From NCBI GenBank assembly GCA_965223545.1, contig OZ245006.1:1408001-1472000 (forward strand): a stretch of DNA of 64,000 nucleotides, written 5' to 3'. The notes beneath the pieces were generated by a model. That model did not search any database. It saw nothing but the letters and a program-made list of their open reading frames with translations, and had not been told where the DNA came from. This document shows positions 40,875 to 57,833 of this stretch, piece after piece; the first letter of the stretch is position 1, and every line of letters begins with the position of its first letter. The stretch comes from Planctomycetota bacterium. GTDB lineage: Bacteria > Planctomycetota > UBA1135 > UBA2386. Position numbers and translations under genes: made by a program.

Positions 40875-42260
40875 ATGTCCAATCGAGTGTTCTCTCTCGC
40901 CGGCCTCGGCTGCGCGCTCGCGTGCGCCGCGCCACCACCGCCGCTGGTGGCGCCGGTGTTCACCACCGCGGTGCGCCACCGCACCGGAAGCGCACTGACG
41001 GGTGTCCTGCCGGGACGCGCCGCGCACCAACCACTGACGCTGCACGCGCGCTGCAGCCTGCGCTTCACCGAGCAGGTGCCGGCGGTCGGCACGCCGCTGA
41101 GCCAGACCGTACGCGCGACGGTGCGCTCCGGCGCCACCGACCCGCTGCGCGGCGTCAGCACGCTGGCGATCGGAGCGCGCGCCGCCGACGGACCGGCCGC
41201 GCGCGTTCTGTTCGCCGGCCTGCAGGATGGCCAGCCGGTGCGCTCGGCCGAAGTCGCCGCCCTCGACGGGCACGTCGCCCCGGGCCACAGCGCCGCGTTC
41301 CTCGTGCGGTCCGCCGAGGCGCAGCAGATCACGCTGTTGGTCACGGCGACCACGGCGGACCGCGCGCGCGTCGACCTCCAGCTCGCCGGCGACGGCAGCG
41401 ACGCCGACCTGGACGCGGACCTCGAGGCCGAGCTCGGCGCCGGTGCCCCCGCTGCGCCCACCACCGACACCGCGCTGCGCCGCGAGACCGTGACGCTGGA
41501 CGCCGAGCTGGTCGCCGGTGGCGACGCGCTGCTGCTGCTGCTTCCGCTCCCCACCGGCGACGCCTCCGGGGCGCTTGCCGTGCTGCTCGAGCTGGCGCGG
41601 ACCTCCGGCGACGAACACCGGGCCCACCGTGAGCTGGCGCGCGGCCAGATCGCCGCCGAGACCGCCATCGCCAAAGCGCAGACCGCACCGCTGAGCCCGG
41701 CCGAGGTGCAGCTGCAGTCGCTGCGCGAAGCATGCCGCCTGCTGCAGCGCACGCGCGCCCGCAGCGCGCTGCTGCAGCTGGCCGAGAGCGCCGAGGCCGC
41801 GCTGACCGCGGACCTCGCGCTGATGAGTGACCACGCGACCATCCAGGAGTACACCGAGCGGTTGCTCGGCGGTGATCGGGTGACGGGACTGGCGCTGGCC
41901 GGGCCGCAGTTCGGCTACGCGCTCGAGGCCGCCGCCTACGGCCTGTTGGCCGAGCGCCTCGACCGCGAGGCACTGGCCCCCGAGCTGCGCGCCGCGCTGT
42001 TGCGGCACGCCGGGGCGGCCGGCCGCGATCCCGGCGCGCTGGCGGCGGTGTTGCGCGGCGAACCGAGCGTCGCGGGCCTACAGCAGCGCCTGCTGGAGGA
42101 GAACCGCTTCGCTCTCGAGGACAGCGACCTGGGGGCGCGGGTCACCGCCGTGCAGTGGCTGCAGGCGCGGCACGCGGCGCCGACGGCGTTCGACCCGTTC
42201 GGCGATCGCGAAGCGCGGCGCGAAGCCCTCGACGCGGCGCGACAACGAGGGGAGCTGTGA
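40875..42260 (+). CDS. Hypothetical lipoprotein; possible degenerate secretin-like beta region plus helical C-terminus
   Basis: MSNRVFSLAGLGCALAC lipobox-like start. The stop overlaps the next ATG (TGATG). Confidence 0.6.
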   Translation: MSNRVFSLAGLGCALACAAPPPPLVAPVFTTAVRHRTGSALTGVLPGRAAHQPLTLHARCSLRFTEQVPAVGTPLSQTVRATVRSGATDPLRGVSTLAIGARAADGPAARVLFAGLQDGQPVRSAEVAALDGHVAPGHSAAFLVRSAEAQQITLLVTATTADRARVDLQLAGDGSDADLDADLEAELGAGAPAAPTTDTALRRETVTLDAELVAGGDALLLLLPLPTGDASGALAVLLELARTSGDEHRAHRELARGQIAAETAIAKAQTAPLSPAEVQLQSLREACRLLQRTRARSALLQLAESAEAALTADLALMSDHATIQEYTERLLGGDRVTGLALAGPQFGYALEAAAYGLLAERLDREALAPELRAALLRHAGAAGRDPGALAAVLRGEPSVAGLQQRLLEENRFALEDSDLGARVTAVQWLQARHAAPTAFDPFGDREARREALDAARQRGEL

Positions 42261-45200
42261 TGAGCCCGACTCCTCCGCCCGCCACCGAGAACGAGAAGCA
42301 ACCACCGAAGAAGCGGCGCCGGCTGTTGCGATGGACGCTGTACTTGCTCGCCGCGGCCGTCGTGCTCCGCGTTCTGCTCGGCTTGGCGATGCCGTGGCTC
42401 GTCCGCTGGGGCGCCGGCTTCGCCGATCTGGCCGCCGACTACGAGCGCATGCAACTGAGCTTGCTCGGCGGACACGTGCAGATCACGCAGCTGAAGCTGC
42501 ACCAGCGCGACGCCGAGGGCGAAGCCGATCCAGAACGGCCGCTGCTGTTCCTCGAGCACGCCGACGTCGACGTCGACGTGTCGGCCCTGCTCACGGGTAC
42601 GCTGCGCGTGCACACGGTCGAGGTCGACGGCCTGCAGACCTGGGTCGAGCGCACTGCCGAGGAGGACGCGGAAGAGACGCCTGCCGAGCCACCGGCCGAG
42701 AGCGATCCAGCAACCGACGAAGGCGCGACCGGGGATGGCGACGCCACCGCCGAACCAGCGCCCCTCGAGCTCGGGCTGCCGGTGCAGATCGACCGCCTGC
42801 GCATCCAGCACGTACAGGTGCACGTGCGGGACACGACGGTCGAGCCCGGCTTCGACGGCTCGCTGCACGCCGACCTGCACGCCTCGCACCTCGGCCATCC
42901 ACAACGCCCCGGATCGGCGGTGTTGCTGGTCCGCATGCCCGGCGTCCTCGACGCGCTCGACGTGCGCGTCGAGGGCCAGAGCGGAGGCGCCGGCGCCCGC
43001 GCACGGCTCGACGTGGCCCTCGACGGGCTGCGCCTGCCAGCACTGCGCGGCTACCTGCGCGCCGCCGGCATCGCGCCGCACGCCGCGCGGCTCGACTTCG
43101 GTCTGCACTCCGAGCTGACCCTCGAGCCCACCGACGAGACCGGCACGGCCGCCAGCGGCGGGCTGCAGCTTGCCGATCTGGCGCTGCGCGCGGACGGCGC
43201 CGAGGCCGTGGCGCTGGACGCGGTCGAGGTCGACGTCGCGTCGCTCACCAATGCCGCTCTGCACATCCCGCGGATCGCATTGCGCGGCCTGCGCGCGGCG
43301 GCGGGCCGCACTCCCCGAGGAGTGACGCGCGTCGCCGGCCTCGACCTCGGCGGGGCGGCGCCGACCGCCGCACCGGCCGCGGCGGAGCCCGAGGCCGAGG
43401 CAGCACCCCCCGCCGTCGACCCGGCGCCGCGCACGTTCGACTGGCGCATCGACGAGATCGCGGTTTCCGAGGCCGCGGCGCGCTTCACCGACGGCGCGGT
43501 CCAGCCCGAGGTCGACCTCACCGTGCGCCTCGACGCGCTCACCGCCACCGACATCACCGCGGCGTTGGACCAGCCGATCGCGGTCGACGCAGCGCTGTTG
43601 TGCGACGGGTTGGCCGCGCTGACGGCCCAGGCCCGCCTGCAGCTGCAGCCGAACCTGACGGCGAGCGCCACTCTGCGCGGTGAGCGCGTCGCGTTCGACG
43701 CGATCGCCCCGTACTTGGCGGCGGCGGGACTGCAGCCGACCCTGCGCGGCGGCACCCTGGAGCTCGCCCTGGAAGCCGCGGTCGAAACCGATCCGGCGAC
43801 CGCGACCACACGCGCGCGCGTCGCGCTGCGCGACCTGGCCTTGCGCGGCGAACAGCCACTGTTGCAGCTCGGCCACGTCGTGCTCGACGACGTAGTCGCC
43901 GCGCCGGGGCGCGTGCGCTTGGGCGAGATCGACATCGCCGGCCTGCAGCTGCCGGTGCGCGTCGTCGGCGGCGGCAGTGTCGCCCTGCTGGGGTTGCGCA
44001 CGGTACCAGCGAACGACACCGTTGCAGCGCCCGCTCCGGAGACCACCGCGGACGCGGAGCCGCGCAACGACGCAGCGCCGCCGCCTACGGCGTCGCCACC
44101 GTTGCGGTTGGAGATCGGGCACCTGCACTGGCGGGACAGCGCAATCGCCTTCGTCGACGAGAGCCGCGTCCCCGCGCCGGAGATCGACACCCGCGACGTC
44201 GGCGTCGAGATCCGCGACCTGGTCATCGGCGGCGACACCCCGACGCCGCCCGCCACCGTCCGCGCCTGGCTCGTCGCACGCGACGTGACGGAGTCGTTGC
44301 AGCTCACCGGTCAGGTGCAGTCCCGCCCGGGGCCGCTCGACCTGACCACGCGCCTGGCGCTGCGCGGCACCGGTCTGCGGGCGGGGCCGCTGACGCCCTA
44401 CCTCGACGCCGCGGGAATCGAGTCGACCCTGCGCGCCGCCAGCCTGGCCGCCGACATCGAGGCCACCGTGCGCGCCACCGACGACGGCATCGCCGCCAGC
44501 GCGGCAGTGACCGAAGTGGCGCTGCGCGACGGCGACGACGAGCTGGCCGCGATCGACAGCCTGCGCGTCGACGGCGTGGCGGTGGGGCCGCGTTCGACCG
44601 ACATCGATTCGGTCGCGCTCGCCGGCGTGCGACTGCGCGCGGCGCGGGAGGCCGATGGCGCGCTGGCCATCGCCGGCATCCGCCTGCCACCGCCGGCGAC
44701 CGGCGGCGTGCCCGATGTGGTGCCGGAGGCGGCCGCGGGCACGGGCGAGGACGCCGGCCCCACCCCTTCCGCACCGGCTGCCACCCCGCCGGCCGCGCAG
44801 ACACAGCTGCGCCTCGCCGAGTTGCGGATCGACGGGGTCGATCTGCAGTGGCAGGACGCGGCGGTGACGCCAGCTGTCGACACCGCCCTGCAGCTGGCGG
44901 TCGCCCTCGACGGGCTTGCGCTCGGCGGGCCCGCCACCCCTGCGGCGCTGCGCTGTGAGGTCGCGGTGCGCGACGCCATCGAGCAGCTCCGGATCGAAGG
45001 CGAGGTGACGCCCGATCCCGAAGACCTCGGCGTCGCCCTCGACCTCGCCCTGCGCGGAGCGCGCGCCGACGCCCTGCGCGGCTACCTTCCCCCACAGACC
45101 CCGGTGACCCTGCGCGACGGCCGACTCCGGCTGCGGCTGGAAGCCACCGCGGCGATGCGCGACGACGGGGCGCGCGCGGTCGAGGTCGCGTTGACCGACA

Positions 45201-47647
45201 TCGACTACCGCGACGGAGACACCGAACGCCCGCTGCTCGGGCTCGACGCGGTGCGGCTGGCGGCACCGCGCCTGGACGCCGATGCGGGAGTCTACGAGAT
45301 CGCCGAAGTGTCGCTGCGCGGCCTGCAGCTCGACGCCACGCGCAGCGCGGACGGCGCGCTGCACGTGCTCGGTCTGGAGCTGCCCGCAACGCCGCCGGCC
45401 CCGGGCGAGGGCGGCGCAGGCCCAACGCCGACTGGCGAGGAGGCGGCACCGAGTCCCGGCTTCCGCGCCGTCGAGACCGCGCGCCGCCCGACGCGGGCAG
45501 CGCCGCTGCCGCGCGTCGAGCTGGGCGCGTTCGAGGTCGACATCGCGGCGCTCACGTTCGTCGATGAGACCCAGCCCGGGTCCACGCCGCTGGTTGCACG
45601 CGCGCGGCTGGCGACCCCCGCTGCCTGCGTCTTGCTGGCAGAGGATCCCGTCTCTCTGCCCCCCTTGCAGCTCGGTCTGGACCTGGAAGTCGAGCCGGTG
45701 CTCGGCGCGCTCGACGTCGACGTCGTCGTGTCGCCGTTCGCCGACCCACCCGGACTCGAAGTGACCGCCGCCGCGCGCGGCCTGCGCGGGGCCGGCCTGA
45801 CCGAGGTGCTGCCGGCCCTCACCGAGCAGCTCGACGCCAGCGGCATCGACAACGGCAGCGTCGACCTGCACCTGCAGGCCCACTTGCTCGCGCGCCGGCG
45901 CGGCCCGGCAGAACTCGATCTGGAGCGCGGTTTCGGCATCGACCTGGTGCTCGACCAGCTGGCGCTGCGCGCCGTCGAGGACGGTCCGGTCGTCGCCGGC
46001 ATCGGCGGCGTGCAGGTCGAGGTGCGGCGCATCAACCCGTCGACCGGCGCCGTGCACGTGCAGTCGGTAGAGATCGACACACCGACGGCGCGGATCACAC
46101 AGCGCACGGACGGCCTGCTGGTCGCCGGTGTGTTGCTCAAGCCCCCCGTTCCGCCCGAGGGCGAGGGCGAGAGCGACGCGTCGCCCGCGGCAGCGCGCCC
46201 TGCACCGCGCGCTGTGGCCGCGGCCGCCCAGAGCGAGCCTGCGCCGGAGTTTCGCCTCGACCAGCTGCTGGTCAGCGGACTCGACGTCGAGTTCCGCGAC
46301 GAGCGCGCCGAGCCCGCGTTCGTGCTGCCCCTGAACCGATTCGATTGCGAGGTGCGCGGCTTCACCACGCGCGCCTTCGAAGAGCCCGTGCCCCTGCGCT
46401 TCAGCGCCGACCTCGGCGCCGGCGGCGTCGAGCTGCCGGAGCGCGTGCAGAGCGTGGCATTCCCCCTCGGCTTTGCCCAAGCGGCGGTCTCGGCGTTGAC
46501 CGGCGGTGAGGACGCCGTCGGCACCGAATCGCGCCGCGTCCTCGAAGAGCTCGCGATCAACGGCCGGCTGTCGTTCGCGCCACAGCTCGAGGGCGTGGTC
46601 AAGGTCAACCTGGCCGGGCTCGAGCTCCCTGCGCTGCGCGGTCCCGCGGCCGAAGCCGGCGTCGAGATCGGCGACGGTGTGCTCGACTTCGGCACCGCCC
46701 TGCGCTTCCGCGGCGCCCAGGGACTCGACATCGACACCGGCATCACCTTCACCCACCTGTCGATCGACGAGCCTCCGGGCGGACCGATCTCGACCTACCT
46801 GCAGCTGCCGGCGCCGCTCGACTCGGTACTGTTCTTGCTGCGCAACGAGGACGGGGAGCACAAGCTGTCGCCGAGCATTCACATCGGCGCCGCCGGCATC
46901 AGCGCGGGCGAGATCGCGCGCGTCGCCGGCGAAACGCTGGCGCTGACCATCGCCAACGCGGTCGCGGCGGCGCCGCTGCGCGCCACGGGAATGCTCACCG
47001 ACGTGGTCGGCATGACCGGGGCGGCCGAGGACCTCGACGCGCTCACCACGCAGCTGGCGTTCGAGCCGGGTGCCCCGGCGCTGCCAGCCGATGCCGCCGA
47101 CACGCTGCATCGCCTGCTCGCCGAGGTGACCCACGACGAGCAGCTGGTGATCGTCGCGCAGCATCAGTTCGGAGCCGCCGATCTCGAGCTGGCGGCGCGT
47201 CGCGGCAGCCCACCGCCGGACACCTGCCACGAGCTGCTGCTGGGTTTCGCCGAGCGCGAGGCGGTGTTGCAGCGACGCCGGGCAGAGGCCGCCGCGCGGG
47301 CGCGCGCGGTGGTGATCACCGGCCAGCGGGCGACCCCCGACCCGAGCGCCGCACTCCGCGCCATCGAGAGCGAGCTCGGCGAGCTGGCCCTGGCGCGCGA
47401 GGCGGTCCTCGAGCTGTTGGCCCCGGGCGCCGAGCGGCAACGGGCGCGCCGCGCCAAGCACAGCGCGCGCGCCGTCGCCGAACGAAGGCTGGCCGAGGTG
47501 CGCGATCTGGTCGTGGCCAAGCTGCGCGGCTTCGGCGCCGAACTGCCGCAGACGCGCATCGAGGTGCGCAAGCCGCGGCTCGGCCAGGTCGCTGGTGAGG
47601 GCGGCGGCCAAATCGTGCTGCAGGCCCGGCGACGGCAGGTTCAGTGA
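42260..47647 (+). CDS. DUF748/AsmA-like large periplasm-spanning protein with an OmpA-like C-terminal domain
   Basis: N-terminal anchor KKRRRLLRWTLYLLAAAVVL; repeated modules such as WRIDEI.V....RFTD.AVQP and IAPYL...G....L.GG.L; C-terminal LAFEPG...AERR..EVRD. Confidence 0.8.
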   Translation: MSPTPPPATENEKQPPKKRRRLLRWTLYLLAAAVVLRVLLGLAMPWLVRWGAGFADLAADYERMQLSLLGGHVQITQLKLHQRDAEGEADPERPLLFLEHADVDVDVSALLTGTLRVHTVEVDGLQTWVERTAEEDAEETPAEPPAESDPATDEGATGDGDATAEPAPLELGLPVQIDRLRIQHVQVHVRDTTVEPGFDGSLHADLHASHLGHPQRPGSAVLLVRMPGVLDALDVRVEGQSGGAGARARLDVALDGLRLPALRGYLRAAGIAPHAARLDFGLHSELTLEPTDETGTAASGGLQLADLALRADGAEAVALDAVEVDVASLTNAALHIPRIALRGLRAAAGRTPRGVTRVAGLDLGGAAPTAAPAAAEPEAEAAPPAVDPAPRTFDWRIDEIAVSEAAARFTDGAVQPEVDLTVRLDALTATDITAALDQPIAVDAALLCDGLAALTAQARLQLQPNLTASATLRGERVAFDAIAPYLAAAGLQPTLRGGTLELALEAAVETDPATATTRARVALRDLALRGEQPLLQLGHVVLDDVVAAPGRVRLGEIDIAGLQLPVRVVGGGSVALLGLRTVPANDTVAAPAPETTADAEPRNDAAPPPTASPPLRLEIGHLHWRDSAIAFVDESRVPAPEIDTRDVGVEIRDLVIGGDTPTPPATVRAWLVARDVTESLQLTGQVQSRPGPLDLTTRLALRGTGLRAGPLTPYLDAAGIESTLRAASLAADIEATVRATDDGIAASAAVTEVALRDGDDELAAIDSLRVDGVAVGPRSTDIDSVALAGVRLRAAREADGALAIAGIRLPPPATGGVPDVVPEAAAGTGEDAGPTPSAPAATPPAAQTQLRLAELRIDGVDLQWQDAAVTPAVDTALQLAVALDGLALGGPATPAALRCEVAVRDAIEQLRIEGEVTPDPEDLGVALDLALRGARADALRGYLPPQTPVTLRDGRLRLRLEATAAMRDDGARAVEVALTDIDYRDGDTERPLLGLDAVRLAAPRLDADAGVYEIAEVSLRGLQLDATRSADGALHVLGLELPATPPAPGEGGAGPTPTGEEAAPSPGFRAVETARRPTRAAPLPRVELGAFEVDIAALTFVDETQPGSTPLVARARLATPAACVLLAEDPVSLPPLQLGLDLEVEPVLGALDVDVVVSPFADPPGLEVTAAARGLRGAGLTEVLPALTEQLDASGIDNGSVDLHLQAHLLARRRGPAELDLERGFGIDLVLDQLALRAVEDGPVVAGIGGVQVEVRRINPSTGAVHVQSVEIDTPTARITQRTDGLLVAGVLLKPPVPPEGEGESDASPAAARPAPRAVAAAAQSEPAPEFRLDQLLVSGLDVEFRDERAEPAFVLPLNRFDCEVRGFTTRAFEEPVPLRFSADLGAGGVELPERVQSVAFPLGFAQAAVSALTGGEDAVGTESRRVLEELAINGRLSFAPQLEGVVKVNLAGLELPALRGPAAEAGVEIGDGVLDFGTALRFRGAQGLDIDTGITFTHLSIDEPPGGPISTYLQLPAPLDSVLFLLRNEDGEHKLSPSIHIGAAGISAGEIARVAGETLALTIANAVAAAPLRATGMLTDVVGMTGAAEDLDALTTQLAFEPGAPALPADAADTLHRLLAEVTHDEQLVIVAQHQFGAADLELAARRGSPPPDTCHELLLGFAEREAVLQRRRAEAAARARAVVITGQRATPDPSAALRAIESELGELALAREAVLELLAPGAERQRARRAKHSARAVAERRLAEVRDLVVAKLRGFGAELPQTRIEVRKPRLGQVAGEGGGQIVLQARRRQVQ

Positions 47648-52050: not shown

Positions 52051-53127
52051 TCAGTCGTCGATGGCGGCAGCCACCAGGCAGCCGCGGGCGACCGAGGTCA
52101 GGGCCTCCTCAGCGCGGAACACCCGACCGATCGGGATCGGGAAGTCGATCTTGGCGAACTCGTCGCGGAACACCTCGATGAAGCCGCCGATCATGCTGGT
52201 GCCACCGGCGCAGGCGATGTCGACCGGCTCGTTGAACGACGGCATGTTCTCGCCGCTCTCGAAACGGTGCTTGATGTTCTGCAGCAGGTAGCTGATCAGG
52301 TTGCGGTAGTAGATCGAGATGGCCTCTTCTTCGCGGTTCTTCGGATCGCGAATGTCGCCGGCCCGTTCCTTCAGCAGAGTCGCCTTCGACTGGCGAATGC
52401 CGAGCACGTTGGCGACGTTCTTGTCGATCCAGTCGCCGCCGCGCGCCACCGAGAACGACAGGCACGGGATCGACTTGTAGCAGACGCAGGCGTTGGCCAT
52501 GCCACCGCCGAACGACAGGCCGATGCCGGTGAAGTCGCTGTCGGCGAGCTCGGAGAACACCACCGCGTGGGCCTCGTTGATGGCCTTGCCGGTGTAGCCC
52601 ATCTTGCCGAGCATGCTCTCGAACAGGCCCTGGTGGTAGACCACGTTGTTGTCGACGTCGAGCGACTCGGCAGGCACCGAGAAGTAGCAGTTCTCACCCG
52701 GCTTCACGGGCTCACCGAGCACCTTCTGGATGATCAGCTTGATCATCGGCATCGCGTCGACCTCGTTGGGGCTGATCAGCCCGTCGGACATCGGTCGCCG
52801 GGTCTCCTTGCCGAAGACGTTGGCCAGCTCGAACGCCGCCTCGCCGATCACGACGAGCTTGCCGTTGTGCACGACGTAGGGCACCTTGAGCTTGGTCAGC
52901 ATGTTCTTGGAGTAGACATCGCTCTGGATGTCCAAGAACGCGTTGCGCTCGACGGCGACGGTCACGCCACCGCTCTGGTCCTGCATCGCCGCCGCCAGGT
53001 TGGCGGTGCCGATGTCCAGGCCCTTACCGAGCGCGACATCCGCCGAGCTCTCGACTGCGGCGCCACCGACGGCGCCCGGATCGTCCCAGTTCTGGTTTTG
53101 GTCGTCGTTGTGCATGTTGTCGCTCAT
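52051..53127 (-). CDS. Actin-fold ATPase, volactin-like
   Basis: Phosphate-1 GLDIGTAN, connect-1 AINEAHAV, phosphate-2 GLSFGGGM, RGGDWID, adenosine AGGTSMIGGF, connect-2 SVARGCL. Confidence 0.88.
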   Translation of the reverse strand: MSDNMHNDDQNQNWDDPGAVGGAAVESSADVALGKGLDIGTANLAAAMQDQSGGVTVAVERNAFLDIQSDVYSKNMLTKLKVPYVVHNGKLVVIGEAAFELANVFGKETRRPMSDGLISPNEVDAMPMIKLIIQKVLGEPVKPGENCYFSVPAESLDVDNNVVYHQGLFESMLGKMGYTGKAINEAHAVVFSELADSDFTGIGLSFGGGMANACVCYKSIPCLSFSVARGGDWIDKNVANVLGIRQSKATLLKERAGDIRDPKNREEEAISIYYRNLISYLLQNIKHRFESGENMPSFNEPVDIACAGGTSMIGGFIEVFRDEFAKIDFPIPIGRVFRAEEALTSVARGCLVAAAIDD

Positions 53128-53153
53128 GACTGCTTGCAGCTGATCTCGCTCGA

Positions 53154-54797
53154 TCAGCCTCCTCCCTTCAGTTTCTTCAAGCGCGCCAGGTTGGCAGCGA
53201 TGCCCCCACCGGTCTTCTTCTTGACCTGGACGTCGTCCATGTTGGACTCCAAGTTCTCATCTTGTCCGTGGGCAAACAGGCCGTCGAAGCTGACGTCGCC
53301 GGCCTCCACGGCGCTGCTGATGCCCATCTTGCGGCCGAACTTCTCCAGCCGGTCGTTGATCGAACCGGCCAGCTTGTTCAGCGCTTCGCTGATCTCGGGG
53401 TCGGCGCCACCACCGCCTCCACCACCGCTCGCCGCGGCGGGGGCTGAAGCCGGCCCCGTGCCGGTCATCATCTTCGCCTTGAGCTCCGCCACCTCGGTCA
53501 TCAGCTTCATGACGAGTTCCGGGTTGACGTCGGGGCTGCTCAGCGCGGCGGCGAGCATCTGCTGCTCGGGCGAAGCCGCAACCGGGTCGACGGCGGGCGC
53601 GGCCGGGGCCTGCGGTGACACCGGCGCAGCGGGCGCAGGCGGCGCAGCAGGCGCTGCCGGCACAGCGGACGGCTCCTGCGCCGAGGGTTGCGCCAACGGC
53701 GTGGGTTGCGGAGCGGCGGTCGGCGCCACTGGGGCAGACGCCGCAGCGGTGGGCGGTGCCGACGCAGCCGGCGCAGGATCGGCCATCCGCATCGGCTCGT
53801 GGATCGGGCCCGACGACTCCGGCATCGGCTGCACGTTGTGCACCTTGTGGGTCGCCTGCAGCGCGGTGAACTTGGACAGATGGCTCTCCAGATCCGCGAG
53901 CTGATCGCGGAACACGTCGTTGCGAGATTGGGCGCGGGCCAGCTCGGCACGCGCGGTCTCGAGGTCTCGCGCGGCGCGGTCGCGGTCTTCGCAGGCCTGG
54001 CGGAACTCCTCCGCCATGCCCTCGCTGCCCGCCGTGGCCGGCGAGGCCTGCGCCTTGGCCAACGCGGCCTGCGCCCGCTCCAGCTCGGCGCGGGCGGCCT
54101 GCAGCTCGCCGCGCAGCTGCTCGACCTCGCGCTGCAGAGCGTCCCGCTCGGCCGCGACCTTGTCGAGCCCAACCCGCAACGACGCGGCATCACCGCCCGC
54201 CGCATCCAGCTTCTCAGCCATCGCGTCTCGCTCCTGCTGGGCCTGCTGCTGCGCCGACCGCGCGGCCTGCAGAGCCTTCTCGAGCTCCCCGGTCGCGTCG
54301 CTCCGGTCGGCTTCGCGCAGCTTTGAGGCAAAACCGTCGCGCTCGGTGCGCAACTGATCGAGCTCGCCGCGGAGTTGCTCGAGCTCGACTTGCAACTCGA
54401 CGACCTGGGTCTCGAACACATCGCCAGGCCGGCCGAGCTCATCGCCAAGAGAACCGCTGTCGCGCAGGCTCTGTAGCTCGCCGGTGAGTTGCTCGCACTG
54501 TTGGCGCAGCGCGACGATCTCCTCCTCCGCACGCTGCGCGTCGGCGGCCTCGTCCTGGCGCTCCTTGACCAGGTGCTTGAACTCCTGCTGGCTGCGCGCG
54601 ACCAGGAGATCGACCTCCTCGCGCGACATCAGGCCGGAGCCCTCGATGGCCTTCTGCACGGCTTCTTGCAGCATCGCCGCGATGTGCTCCGCACGGATCA
54701 CCTTGACCAACCGACGCCCCTGGCTCTTGAGGTCGTCCAGGGTCGTGGTGCGCGACCTGGCAGCAAGTGCCTGCTTGACGTCGACGATCGAATCCAT
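53154..54797 (-). CDS. Long coiled-coil protein with a Pro/Ala linker and basic C-terminal tail
   Basis: ATG at 54797 preceded by AGGAGG. Roughly 290 aa of E/Q/R/L/A heptads. The stop lies 26 bp before the actin-like gene. Confidence 0.8.
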   Translation of the reverse strand: MDSIVDVKQALAARSRTTTLDDLKSQGRRLVKVIRAEHIAAMLQEAVQKAIEGSGLMSREEVDLLVARSQQEFKHLVKERQDEAADAQRAEEEIVALRQQCEQLTGELQSLRDSGSLGDELGRPGDVFETQVVELQVELEQLRGELDQLRTERDGFASKLREADRSDATGELEKALQAARSAQQQAQQERDAMAEKLDAAGGDAASLRVGLDKVAAERDALQREVEQLRGELQAARAELERAQAALAKAQASPATAGSEGMAEEFRQACEDRDRAARDLETARAELARAQSRNDVFRDQLADLESHLSKFTALQATHKVHNVQPMPESSGPIHEPMRMADPAPAASAPPTAAASAPVAPTAAPQPTPLAQPSAQEPSAVPAAPAAPPAPAAPVSPQAPAAPAVDPVAASPEQQMLAAALSSPDVNPELVMKLMTEVAELKAKMMTGTGPASAPAAASGGGGGGGADPEISEALNKLAGSINDRLEKFGRKMGISSAVEAGDVSFDGLFAHGQDENLESNMDDVQVKKKTGGGIAANLARLKKLKGGG

Positions 54798-55715: not shown

Positions 55716-56063
55716 ATGACGACGAACAACGAACGGCGCGGCGCCCCGCGCGCCGCCGCGCAGCTGCCGCTGCGGCTGTCCCCCGATGCAGAGGCGCAGC
55801 CGGCAACTCTCAAGGATCTTTCCACATCCGGTCTGTGTTGCCGCTACGGCGAGCCCGTCACCGAGATGACCCTGATGGGGATCCAGCTCGAGCTGCCGGG
55901 ACAAGAACAAGCGCACGCCCTGCGCGGCGTCGTCGTGCGCTGCGAGAAGCTGCGCGGCGTCAACCCGCCGACCTACGAGATCGCGATCTACTTCACCGAG
56001 GTGCCGGCGGCGACGCGACAGGCGATCGGCGCGTTCGTCGAGGCCCAGCTGGAAGCCGTCTGA
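55716..56063 (+). CDS. Stand-alone PilZ domain protein
   Basis: RRGAPR (RxxxR) and DLSTSG (DxSxxG); GGAGG ribosome site upstream. Confidence 0.88.
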   Translation: MTTNNERRGAPRAAAQLPLRLSPDAEAQPATLKDLSTSGLCCRYGEPVTEMTLMGIQLELPGQEQAHALRGVVVRCEKLRGVNPPTYEIAIYFTEVPAATRQAIGAFVEAQLEAV

Positions 56064-56970: not shown

Positions 56971-57657
56971 TCAGCGGCGGCGACCGCTGCTGCGCGCGGC
57001 CTTGTCTTGCTTGATCTTCTTGGCGCCACCGACGATGCCGAGCACGAAGTAGAGCTCGACCAGGAACGCGCCGAAGAACACGAACAGCTTGCCCGGGCCG
57101 AAGTAGCGCAGGAAGTTGCCGATCTTGACGAACCGGTCCGGGTCCTCGCGATCCACGAGGGTGCTGAACAGATCACCCCAATCGGTCACCAACTTGCCGC
57201 CCTCGGCGGCGAACGCGGCAACCGCCGGCTCGTCCCAAGCACTCACCAGCTTGAAGATGCCCCAGACGAACGGCAGGAACGCGAGGCCGATGAACTTCAT
57301 CGTCGGCGGCCGGCCGTGGCTGATGGCGCCCCAGGCCGTCCAGATCAAGCCACCGCCGATGATGAAGAACAACCCACCGCTGAACGTCTTGTAGCCGGCC
57401 ATCTCCCACTGCGGCCCGAACGGCATCAGGCAGCCCATGGCGATGAGCACGCCGGCGAACAGGAAGCGGTACCACTCCTTGGACGCAGTGCGGCTGTAGA
57501 ACGGCGCCGGCAGGCCCGAGGACATCACCACGTGCTGCGGGCCGCTGGCGCGGGGGGCGGCTTCGGCCAGCGCCTGGCCGGCGTCGGCCGGCGCGGGCGC
57601 GAGTTCCTCCAGCGGCTCCAGCTCTTCCAGCTCGGGCACGTTGCTCGATTCGGTCAT
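56971..57657 (-). CDS. Hypothetical membrane protein (about four transmembrane helices)
   Basis: Strong host codon bias, acidic N-terminus, hydrophobic segments, basic C-terminus. Confidence 0.75.
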   Translation of the reverse strand: MTESSNVPELEELEPLEELAPAPADAGQALAEAAPRASGPQHVVMSSGLPAPFYSRTASKEWYRFLFAGVLIAMGCLMPFGPQWEMAGYKTFSGGLFFIIGGGLIWTAWGAISHGRPPTMKFIGLAFLPFVWGIFKLVSAWDEPAVAAFAAEGGKLVTDWGDLFSTLVDREDPDRFVKIGNFLRYFGPGKLFVFFGAFLVELYFVLGIVGGAKKIKQDKAARSSGRRR

Positions 57658-57833
57658 CGTTCTTCTTTTCTCCAATGGGACGAGGGGGGACAAGAGAATG
57701 GGCGGGTCGGCGGCGACGGCACGGGCAACGCCAACGACGCAGAGTGTGCCGCGGTTGGGCCCGATCCGGGCGTTCTTTGCCGCCAAAAATGCGCCGGCCC
57801 CCGCCGGGCTGAGGCCCGGGCGCAGCGCCGCGG

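Follow-up and report, generated by a model that had tools for sequence, protein, structure and literature searches.

A volactin-family actin and its putative modular adaptor in a planctomycete genome

Results

A volactin-family actin is encoded next to a coiled-coil protein

The window analyzed here is a stretch of 64,000 nucleotides from a Planctomycetota bacterium (assembly GCA_965223545.1, contig OZ245006.1, positions 1,408,001 to 1,472,000), part of an 8.07-Mb contig in a genome that is 91% complete. It contains two co-oriented genes, one for an actin-like ATPase and one for a coiled-coil protein that we call the adaptor, with 26 base pairs (bp) between the adaptor stop codon and the actin ATG (Table 1). 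The actin might start at Met5; one database copy has 354 amino acids. A sequence-only reading of the window had described this arrangement as a chromosomal two-gene module of a volactin-like actin and a coiled-coil partner. Its coordinates, spacing and co-orientation were correct, and the module is borne out by conserved pairing in related loci.

Table 1. Features of the gene pair, with positions counted in the window
Feature	Position	Strand	Remarks
Gene for volactin/Mad28-family actin-like ATPase	52051-53127	minus	358 amino acids; residues 1 to ~28 are a low-confidence extension
Adaptor gene	53154-54797	minus	547 amino acids; ATG at 54797
Adaptor N-terminal domain (residues 1-85)	54543-54797	minus	No Pfam family
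Adaptor coiled-coil region (residues ~59-321)	53835-54623	minus	AlphaFold2 helices 59-113, 124-251, 258-321
Adaptor C-terminal tail (residues ~516-547)	53157-53252	minus	LESN motif, short strand, amphipathic helix; predicted actin-binding element

Judged by its sequence, the 358-residue protein is a volactin-family actin and not MreB, FtsA or MamK. In hidden Markov model (HMM) searches it scored 283.8 bits against the Pfam family Volactin (PF25216; cut-off 35), spanning positions 3-321 of the 321-position model, and fell well below the NCBIfam cut-offs for MreB (19.7 of 293 bits), FtsA (14.5 of 176) and MamK (12 of 400). Among 14 control genomes, the PF25216 cut-off was passed only by Haloferax volcanii. 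All motifs quoted in the sequence-only reading are present in the translation, including the ATPase motifs and the Ser in phosphate-2, and an alignment of 120 family sequences shows that this residue (S205) is almost invariant and that the catalytic Glu185 is kept. With a 120-sequence alignment as input, AlphaFold2 gave a confident actin fold (mean predicted local distance difference test score, pLDDT, 93). The best fold matches were BeeR (Z 27.1, root-mean-square deviation 3.2, 301 residues aligned) and MreB (Z 25.6, root-mean-square deviation 3.2, 282 aligned), and the nearest solved structures, those of BeeR, MreB and MamK, are 17-21% identical to the actin. A single-protein sequence search found no solved relative at E<=1, and the actin profile reached solved MamK, BeeR, MreB and FtsA chains weakly.

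The actin is 40-42% identical to three volactin homologues from haloarchaea, compared with 20-22% for MreB and MamK-type actins. A FastTree phylogeny (129 sequences, 331 columns) places the actin in a planctomycete-dominated clade within the volactin family, whose branch has a support of 0.84, with long branches to the four outgroup sequences. The outgroups were MreB and MamK-type actins, and the root is uncertain; the tree says nothing firm on the direction of transfer. It sets the protein apart from MreB and MamK-type actins and together with haloarchaeal volactins, as the sequence-only reading had anticipated; of the families which that reading had listed for a tree, it covers volactin, MreB and MamK-type actins. 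The named homologues of the actin come almost entirely from Planctomycetota metagenome-assembled genomes. By analogy with volactin and Mad28, the protein would be expected to bind ATP and to polymerize into dynamic polar filaments.

The adaptor is modular and is conserved beside the actin

An AlphaFold2 model and an alignment of 52 homologues divide the adaptor into a conserved N-terminal domain (the head), a long coiled coil, an Ala/Pro-rich disordered linker, two short helices and a conserved C-terminal tail in which N519 and L537 are invariant. Homologues range from 180 to 694 amino acids (median 268, n=71), and the coiled coil and linker vary greatly; those of 180 residues keep head and tail with the coiled coil almost gone. 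Against Pfam the adaptor matches generic coiled-coil families only and not DUF7139, and the head of the window copy matches no family at E<=0.1. The adaptor profile finds only coiled coils among solved chains, a fold search with the full-length model (predicted TM-score 0.31) gave no match at E<=0.001, and a search of the ESM Atlas with a short homologue returned only unnamed clusters under 0.9. The partner had earlier been called a coiled-coil scaffold or regulator; the coiled coil stands, and modular adaptor is a better description than plain scaffold.

The adaptor tail lies directly upstream of the actin in 75 of 79 related loci. The other four start inside the actin gene, at contig ends, so the survey of neighborhoods proposed earlier finds the partner beside the actin at all 75 informative loci. 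The two genes are co-oriented and 22-130 bp apart in 66 loci. In a sample of 401 genomes of the phylum, the tail was upstream in 26 of the 30 best PF25216 loci; among the remaining four, two are divergent copies that lack a tail, one shows a weak tail (12.4 bits, higher than 300 of 300 shuffles), and one belongs to a tandem as its second copy, with the adaptor in front of the first. Nine of 150 distant volactin representatives carry a fused head domain, and none of these nine has a tail match. Related arrangements include an adaptor gene in front of a volactin tandem (L235, L236, L237), in which the second copy is N-terminally extended and in some cases carries a fused head. In a second planctomycete clade of volactins (L238-L241), the upstream genes encode a variant tail that is conserved but distinct. 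One 219-residue record (P0168) consists of a partial actin followed by the adaptor tail and is possibly an assembly chimera.

The adaptor tail is predicted to dock in the actin groove

We predicted the complex of actin residues 28-358 with the last 83 residues of the adaptor, both supplied as alignments. The score was 0.63 (runs 0.56, 0.64 and 0.63), compared with 0.02 for the best of three controls; in calibration the score mark was reached by 116 of 157 solved pairs and 2 of 215 mismatched pairs, a benchmark that is only roughly valid for our own alignments. The runs share at least 56% of contacts, and the partner pLDDT is at least 51. Modeling of the complex, which the sequence-only reading had suggested, thereby supports binding. 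The predicted interface is formed by adaptor residues 516-544, that is, the conserved tail, with the helix lying on actin residues 191-199, 218-219 and 348-356 and the strand pairing with residues 55-59 (contact region 53-60). We take these contacts to be the ends of the connect-1 and connect-2 helices, i.e. the hydrophobic groove between subdomains IA and IIA, together with the edge strand of subdomain IA (assigned by motif mapping onto actin numbering rather than by superposition). This groove is bound by arcadin-2 and ParR (PMC5173319). The last ~30 residues of the adaptor are modeled as docking on the actin at a site that corresponds, by motif, to the groove used by ParR, arcadin-2 and WH2.

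Natural fusions provide independent support for binding at the level of sequence: they keep the head and lose the tail, and their groove is less hydrophobic. At six groove positions, 0.50 of cells are hydrophobic in seven fusions versus 1.0, 0.84 and 0.80 in three groups with tail genes, although related sequences are not independent in this comparison.

A second adaptor precedes a MamK/saltatorellin-type actin

A search of the genome with the head profile gave a single further protein (G000:C1:7076097-7076888, E 3.9e-13). This paralogue is encoded directly upstream of a MamK/saltatorellin-type actin (G000:C1:7076990-7078060), which passes the NCBIfam MamK cut-off (407.6 versus 400) and is 21% identical to the window actin. 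The heads of the two adaptors are homologous (profile-profile probability 99.2%, E 2e-19), and volactin-type and MamK-type tails are unrelated (profile probability 0.24%). At 16 MamK-type loci, eight of which were used to build the MamK-type tail profile, the head is upstream in 9 and the MamK-type tail in 15. All four head-less adaptors tested (L248, L251, L256, L257) have a GGDEF domain in place of the head, a substitution that suggests signal input to the saltatorellin-type filament.

The head domain is present in 169 of the 401 phylum genomes. We also hand-picked 20 further head loci, none next to a listed volactin. Seven have a MamK-type tail right before a MamK-type actin, one has a MamK-type tail with no actin in the stretch, and six have volactin-type tails (HMM match in five, judged by eye in one), lack an adjacent actin and come from genomes that encode a volactin elsewhere. 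No crossed pairing of tail and actin occurs among these 20, and tail type matches actin type in every linked case examined. Together, these data point to a modular internal skeleton of two actins in this planctomycete.

In the host, a gene for a ParA-like ATPase, the adaptor paralogue and the MamK/saltatorellin-type actin stand in a row (G000:C1:7074828-7078060; L244:4829-8064), near which no magnetosome genes were seen. A ParA-like gene adjoins the MamK-type module in 7 of the 16 and 7 of the 20 related loci. Six head proteins with other C-termini, up to ~1050 amino acids long, have no adjacent actin (L291, L305, L306, L297, L298, L300). The possibility that the window actin is itself saltatorellin was rejected: the published reverse cloning primer (bioRxiv 10.1101/817700) encodes a C-terminus that matches the other actin of the genome (L082).

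Distribution of the actins and of related tails

The genome encodes one volactin, one MamK-type actin and mreB, and neither FtsZ nor tubulin was detectable at its completeness of 91%. Of the 401 phylum genomes sampled, 385 have mreB and 147 have PF25216 above cut-off, divergent copies included. A class sample of 121 genomes contains the MamK-type actin in 101 and volactin in 29, and volactin occurs in 16 of 17 genomes of the host's family. Since mreB is retained in the host and across the phylum, the module is no replacement for MreB; we rejected that role, and the earlier hint of compensation for a missing MreB falls with it.

Several volactin variants were encountered. In one family (f7), PF25216 is found in 24 of 24 genomes and the head domain in none of the 24; its divergent volactins (L086:1462-2514, L098:1465-2592) have Ser or Ala for the catalytic Glu and no upstream tail gene. 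A LAGLIDADG intein is inserted at phosphate-2 in P0140 and other representatives of ~700 residues that match in two separate stretches, and other chains (P0123, P0124, P0126, P0130, P0133, P0141) hold either two volactin domains or a ParB-like helix-turn-helix N-terminal region (weak, E 3e-4).

A distant volactin clade recovered from metagenome contigs is preceded by a short gene that carries a clearly related tail (profile probability 84.6%, E 7e-6), and tails of at least 5 bits were found in 62 of 73 upstream frames. Gas-vesicle genes surround this clade in 69 of 80 partly redundant loci. In these loci (L152-L231, e.g. L170:3360-4987), the volactin and tail gene sit amid genes for gvpF/L, gvpK, Cdc48-like AAA, ArsA and Hsp20/70. 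Literature searches found no paper on actin in gas-vesicle clusters. Gas-vesicle families were not found in the host genome in a search in which no positive control matched, and tblastn with gvp proteins likewise gave none.

Three haloarchaeal volactin homologues, all from plasmid records, have a gene for a DUF7139 membrane protein upstream. Against a planctomycete-only tail profile, their C-terminal repeats scored 4.3 bits, 2.2 bits and, for the third, nothing; against a broadened profile the tails scored 22.0, 10.1 and 10.8 bits, each above 200 of 200 shuffles. By profile comparison the homology of the haloarchaeal tails is weak (probability 15%, E 0.0017).

Large phage contigs (LR745208.1, LR756511.1; L118-L151), in records of up to 595 kb, also encode volactin homologues. 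Searching viral contigs with a phage homologue gave 32 loci, and searching them with the window actin's own patterns gave no relative. Evidence for a tail in the phage upstream genes is mixed (3 of 8 at <=1/200 shuffles; profile probability 0.9%): one subgroup is preceded by a tail-like gene, another by a conserved gene of a different kind.

Discussion

Proposed mechanism and alternatives

Family membership, gene pairing, domain sharing and the matching of tail type to actin type are results of this analysis and the complex is a prediction, whereas polymerization, end-binding, a cargo and a cellular role are inferences. On balance we lean towards an adaptor that binds and tethers filament ends through its groove-binding tail, with the head giving the address. 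The pair would then constitute a two-component cytomotive module in which the ATP-binding actin polymerizes into dynamic polar filaments. The adaptor would oligomerize through its coiled coil and display several ~30-residue tails on flexible linkers, each predicted to add a strand to the edge of subdomain IA and to lay an amphipathic helix in the IA/IIA groove. In crenactin filaments this groove is occupied by the next subunit, so a free groove would be expected only on monomers and at one filament end; clustered tails could therefore nucleate, hold or track filament ends, acting as ParR does for ParM. The N-terminal domain would supply the address, be it a landmark or a cargo. Given that the MamK-type actin is preceded by a paralogue with a common head and a different tail, the two kinds of filament are probably directed to one and the same structure. 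The module would most likely serve to position a structure inside the cell, or to provide a brace between membrane sites, in a cell without FtsZ.

Several observations weigh against this model. Binding in the groove can also mean sequestration, as with arcadin-2, and the complex is a computational model that may owe part of its high score to resemblance to solved complexes with a helix in the groove (ParM:ParR, crenactin:arcadin-2, actin:WH2). Groove hydrophobicity does not follow the tail gene closely: it is 0.75 in two divergent copies that lack a tail gene, 0.67 in three copies from haloarchaea that have such a gene, and in phages 0.70 without versus 0.79 with a tail-like gene. Six of the 20 head proteins carry neither kind of tail at their C-terminus, so the head is used outside actin adaptors as well. 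The planctomycete pair has no linked cargo gene, and gvp genes are found in none of the 79 and none of the 42 loci. Of two sister families surveyed, one yielded the module in a single genome out of 69 and the other in none of 22, so close relatives can dispense with it. Finally, Mad28 needs no partner in E. coli to polymerize and to locate curved membrane (PMC12713370).

Sequestration deserves separate consideration: the partner might occupy the groove as a sequestering or depolymerizing regulator, like arcadin-2 or thymosin-beta4, with the actin monomeric until released. The predicted site is the same as that of arcadin-2, whose C-terminal helix dissolves crenactin filaments (PMC5173319), and co-oriented genes 22-130 bp apart in 66 loci would suit expression at a fixed ratio. 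However, a sequestering peptide would need neither a conserved head nor a coiled coil, related tails also occur on membrane proteins and on proteins of gas-vesicle clusters, and the fusions, in keeping the head and losing the tail, fit tethering. We regard this explanation as unlikely. It also seems rather improbable that the partner is a self-assembling intermediate-filament-like or polar scaffold serving cell shape rather than cargo positioning, with the actin as a recruited client or lining curved membrane like Mad28. The long coiled coil of very variable length, the lack of detectable FtsZ or tubulin in the host and the lack of linked cargo genes would agree with such a scaffold, as would the effect of volactin on disk shape (PMC10869688) and the way Mad28 follows curvature (PMC12713370). 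Yet the 180-residue homologues keep head and tail with almost no coiled coil, MreB is kept in 385 of 401 genomes, and the curvature sensing of Mad28 is attributed to an N-terminal amphipathic region where the window actin has only an acidic, low-confidence extension. Even so, a scaffold of this kind would be compatible with tail binding.

DNA segregation in the manner of ParMR or salactin, with the N-terminal domain as a DNA binder resembling a ribbon-helix-helix, strikes us as quite improbable. The modeled layout with a C-terminal actin-binding helix is ParR-like, the head is basic with a conserved strand-then-helix pattern, and a ParA-like gene stands beside the MamK-type module in the loci counted above. 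A weak RHH_6 match was also seen in 1 of 31 members (E 0.015), but this is at chance level; moreover, the pair sits on the chromosome and has kept ssb and a PilZ gene as stable neighbors in 22 of 79 loci, and the head also occurs on proteins with unrelated C-termini. We give hardly any weight to the idea that the protein is a non-polymerizing actin-fold ATPase with an incidental gene neighbor. Phosphate-2 does lack the usual Asp, but Ser at this position is common to Mad28, which polymerizes with ATP-gamma-S, and to haloarchaeal volactin homologues, while pairing at 75 of 75 informative loci and the existence of natural fusions speak against coincidence.

Comparison with known systems

Volactin of Haloferax volcanii (VolA, HVO_2015) belongs to the same Pfam family, PF25216, as the window actin. 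Its filaments are dynamic and ParM-like, are bound to the membrane by their tips and affect disk shape, and the same study leaves open what holds the tips at the membrane and invokes unknown volactin-binding factors (PMC10869688). The CdpA-like protein HVO_2016 adjoins volactin (PMC12126565), and both proteins are more abundant in disks (supplement of PMC10869688); our searches of the accessible literature found no report that HVO_2016 binds volactin. The haloarchaeal loci also have an upstream gene with a related tail, although the relation is weak by profile comparison and concerns the three plasmid-record sequences. The planctomycete system differs in its bacterial host and in a soluble partner that combines a head outside any known family with a coiled coil where the haloarchaeal protein has four membrane helices. 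Only the tail of the window adaptor is related to CdpA-like proteins (DUF7139), and it shows no match to their N-terminal four-helix membrane domain.

Mad28 of the deep-branching magnetotactic bacteria RS-1 and BW-1 has a Ser-type phosphate-2 and an xExx connect-1 motif and forms filaments in vitro with ATP-gamma-S (PMC10653835). It polymerizes in vitro and in vivo (PMC10653835, PMC12713370) and positions the magnetosome chain amid coiled-coil Mad proteins (PMC12748827). The window actin shares both motifs by eye and agrees with BW-1 Mad28 at 13 of 20 and 13 of 21 residues in the two corresponding blocks, likewise by eye (Fig. S9B of PMC12713370), in a comparison confined to these blocks. Mad28 also co-occurs with a MamK-family actin and coiled-coil proteins, as the window actin does. 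Unlike Mad28, however, neither host actin has magnetosome genes seen beside it, the window neighbors being housekeeping genes; phosphate-1 begins at residue 35, versus ~68-88 in Mad28, and no helix is predicted in residues 1-34. The magnetochrome domain (PF18509) was not found in the 91% complete genome, in a search in which no positive control matched. The available parts of PMC10653835, PMC12713370 and PMC12748827 describe no tail-bearing adaptor for Mad28.

Saltatorellin of Saltatorellus ferox is a filament-forming actin of related planctomycetes proposed to act in shape change; two actins per strain were counted, and the accessible part of the preprint mentions no partner gene (bioRxiv 10.1101/817700). 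In ParM:ParR, crenactin:arcadin-2 and actin:WH2, a C-terminal amphipathic helix of the partner sits in the IA/IIA groove, as the model predicts for the adaptor tail. The two ends of the adaptor show no resemblance in sequence to any solved chain, and the order of elements in WH2 is the reverse of the tail's strand-then-helix. The window pair lies on the 8.07-Mb contig and was seen in no plasmid or centromere context, though no search for centromere-like repeats was made, and one of 31 heads has the RHH_6 match (E 0.015).

The sequence-only reading knew of no description of such a system in bacteria. For the actin this does not hold, since Mad28 shares the family motifs and polymerizes (PMC10653835, PMC12713370); the family is known in bacteria as Mad28, only in magnetosome clusters. 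We found the adaptor family and the non-magnetosome planctomycete system undescribed. Literature searches gave no description of the adaptor family, of volactin in bacteria by that name or of a saltatorellin adaptor; Wiegand et al. 2020 (Nature Microbiology) reportedly surveyed planctomycete actin homologues and may list the actin family. The system is not described in the available portions of 10.64898/2026.10.26.761892, PMC12050087, PMC2875224, 10.1101/2024.10.19.619234 and PMC11929497.

Wider implications

A broader picture seems to us possible rather than probable. Many uncultured Planctomycetota may have a cytoskeleton of volactin/Mad28-type and MamK/saltatorellin-type actins, the families that organize magnetosome chains, without magnetosomes, and wired by adaptors with a common head and actin-specific tails. 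The volactin tail might be a portable end-binding motif of ancient origin, equivalent in prokaryotes to WH2, re-mounted on a haloarchaeal membrane anchor (HVO_2016, which would be the missing tip anchor of volactin) and on gas-vesicle-cluster and jumbo-phage proteins. The magnetoskeleton could then be a specialization of a general organelle-positioning kit.

These results join the literatures on archaeal volactin and on magnetosome Mad28, which do not cite each other in the papers that could be searched. The adaptor is the first candidate binding partner for the volactin family, and the tail motif makes the question of the volactin tip anchor testable in a genetically tractable archaeon. Planctomycetes, which divide without FtsZ, gain a third actin beyond MreB and saltatorellin, and saltatorellin-type actins gain a paralogous adaptor that is fused to GGDEF in some relatives. 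If the model is right, adaptors with a common head and specific tails for two actin families would represent a step towards a eukaryote-like actin regulatory network in bacteria.

Neighboring genes and codon usage

The pair is flanked by a methyltransferase gene and a CotH-like gene on one side and by ssb and a PilZ gene on the other; beyond these lie genes that, judged by eye, resemble prmC and prfA. The neighbors examined at the locus include no mreCD, dcw, partition or magnetosome gene, in agreement with the sequence-only reading. The pair is found together with ssb and the PilZ gene in 22 of 79 related loci, and with the CotH-like and methyltransferase genes in none of the 79. A scan for promoters at the pair gave no signal exceeding shuffles.

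The actin gene has a GC content at third codon positions (GC3) of 0.93 and a codon adaptation index (CAI) of 0.79, comparable to mreB (0.75) and dnaK (0.81), both of which belong to the CAI reference set. The adaptor gene is less biased (GC3 0.85, CAI 0.57), where the sequence-only reading had ascribed host-like, strongly biased codons to both genes. Recent import, which had been doubted before, finds no support in codon use, conserved neighbors or the family-wise clustering in the tree.

The PilZ-domain gene (window 55716-56063) and a gene for a 271-residue membrane protein without a Pfam match (56971-57786) are kept with ssb beside the module in 20-22 of 79 loci. Elsewhere in the window, positions 42155-47647 encode an 1830-residue protein with repeated DUF748 stretches, and between 38001 and 39000 the GC content drops to 0.567, compared with ~0.70 elsewhere.

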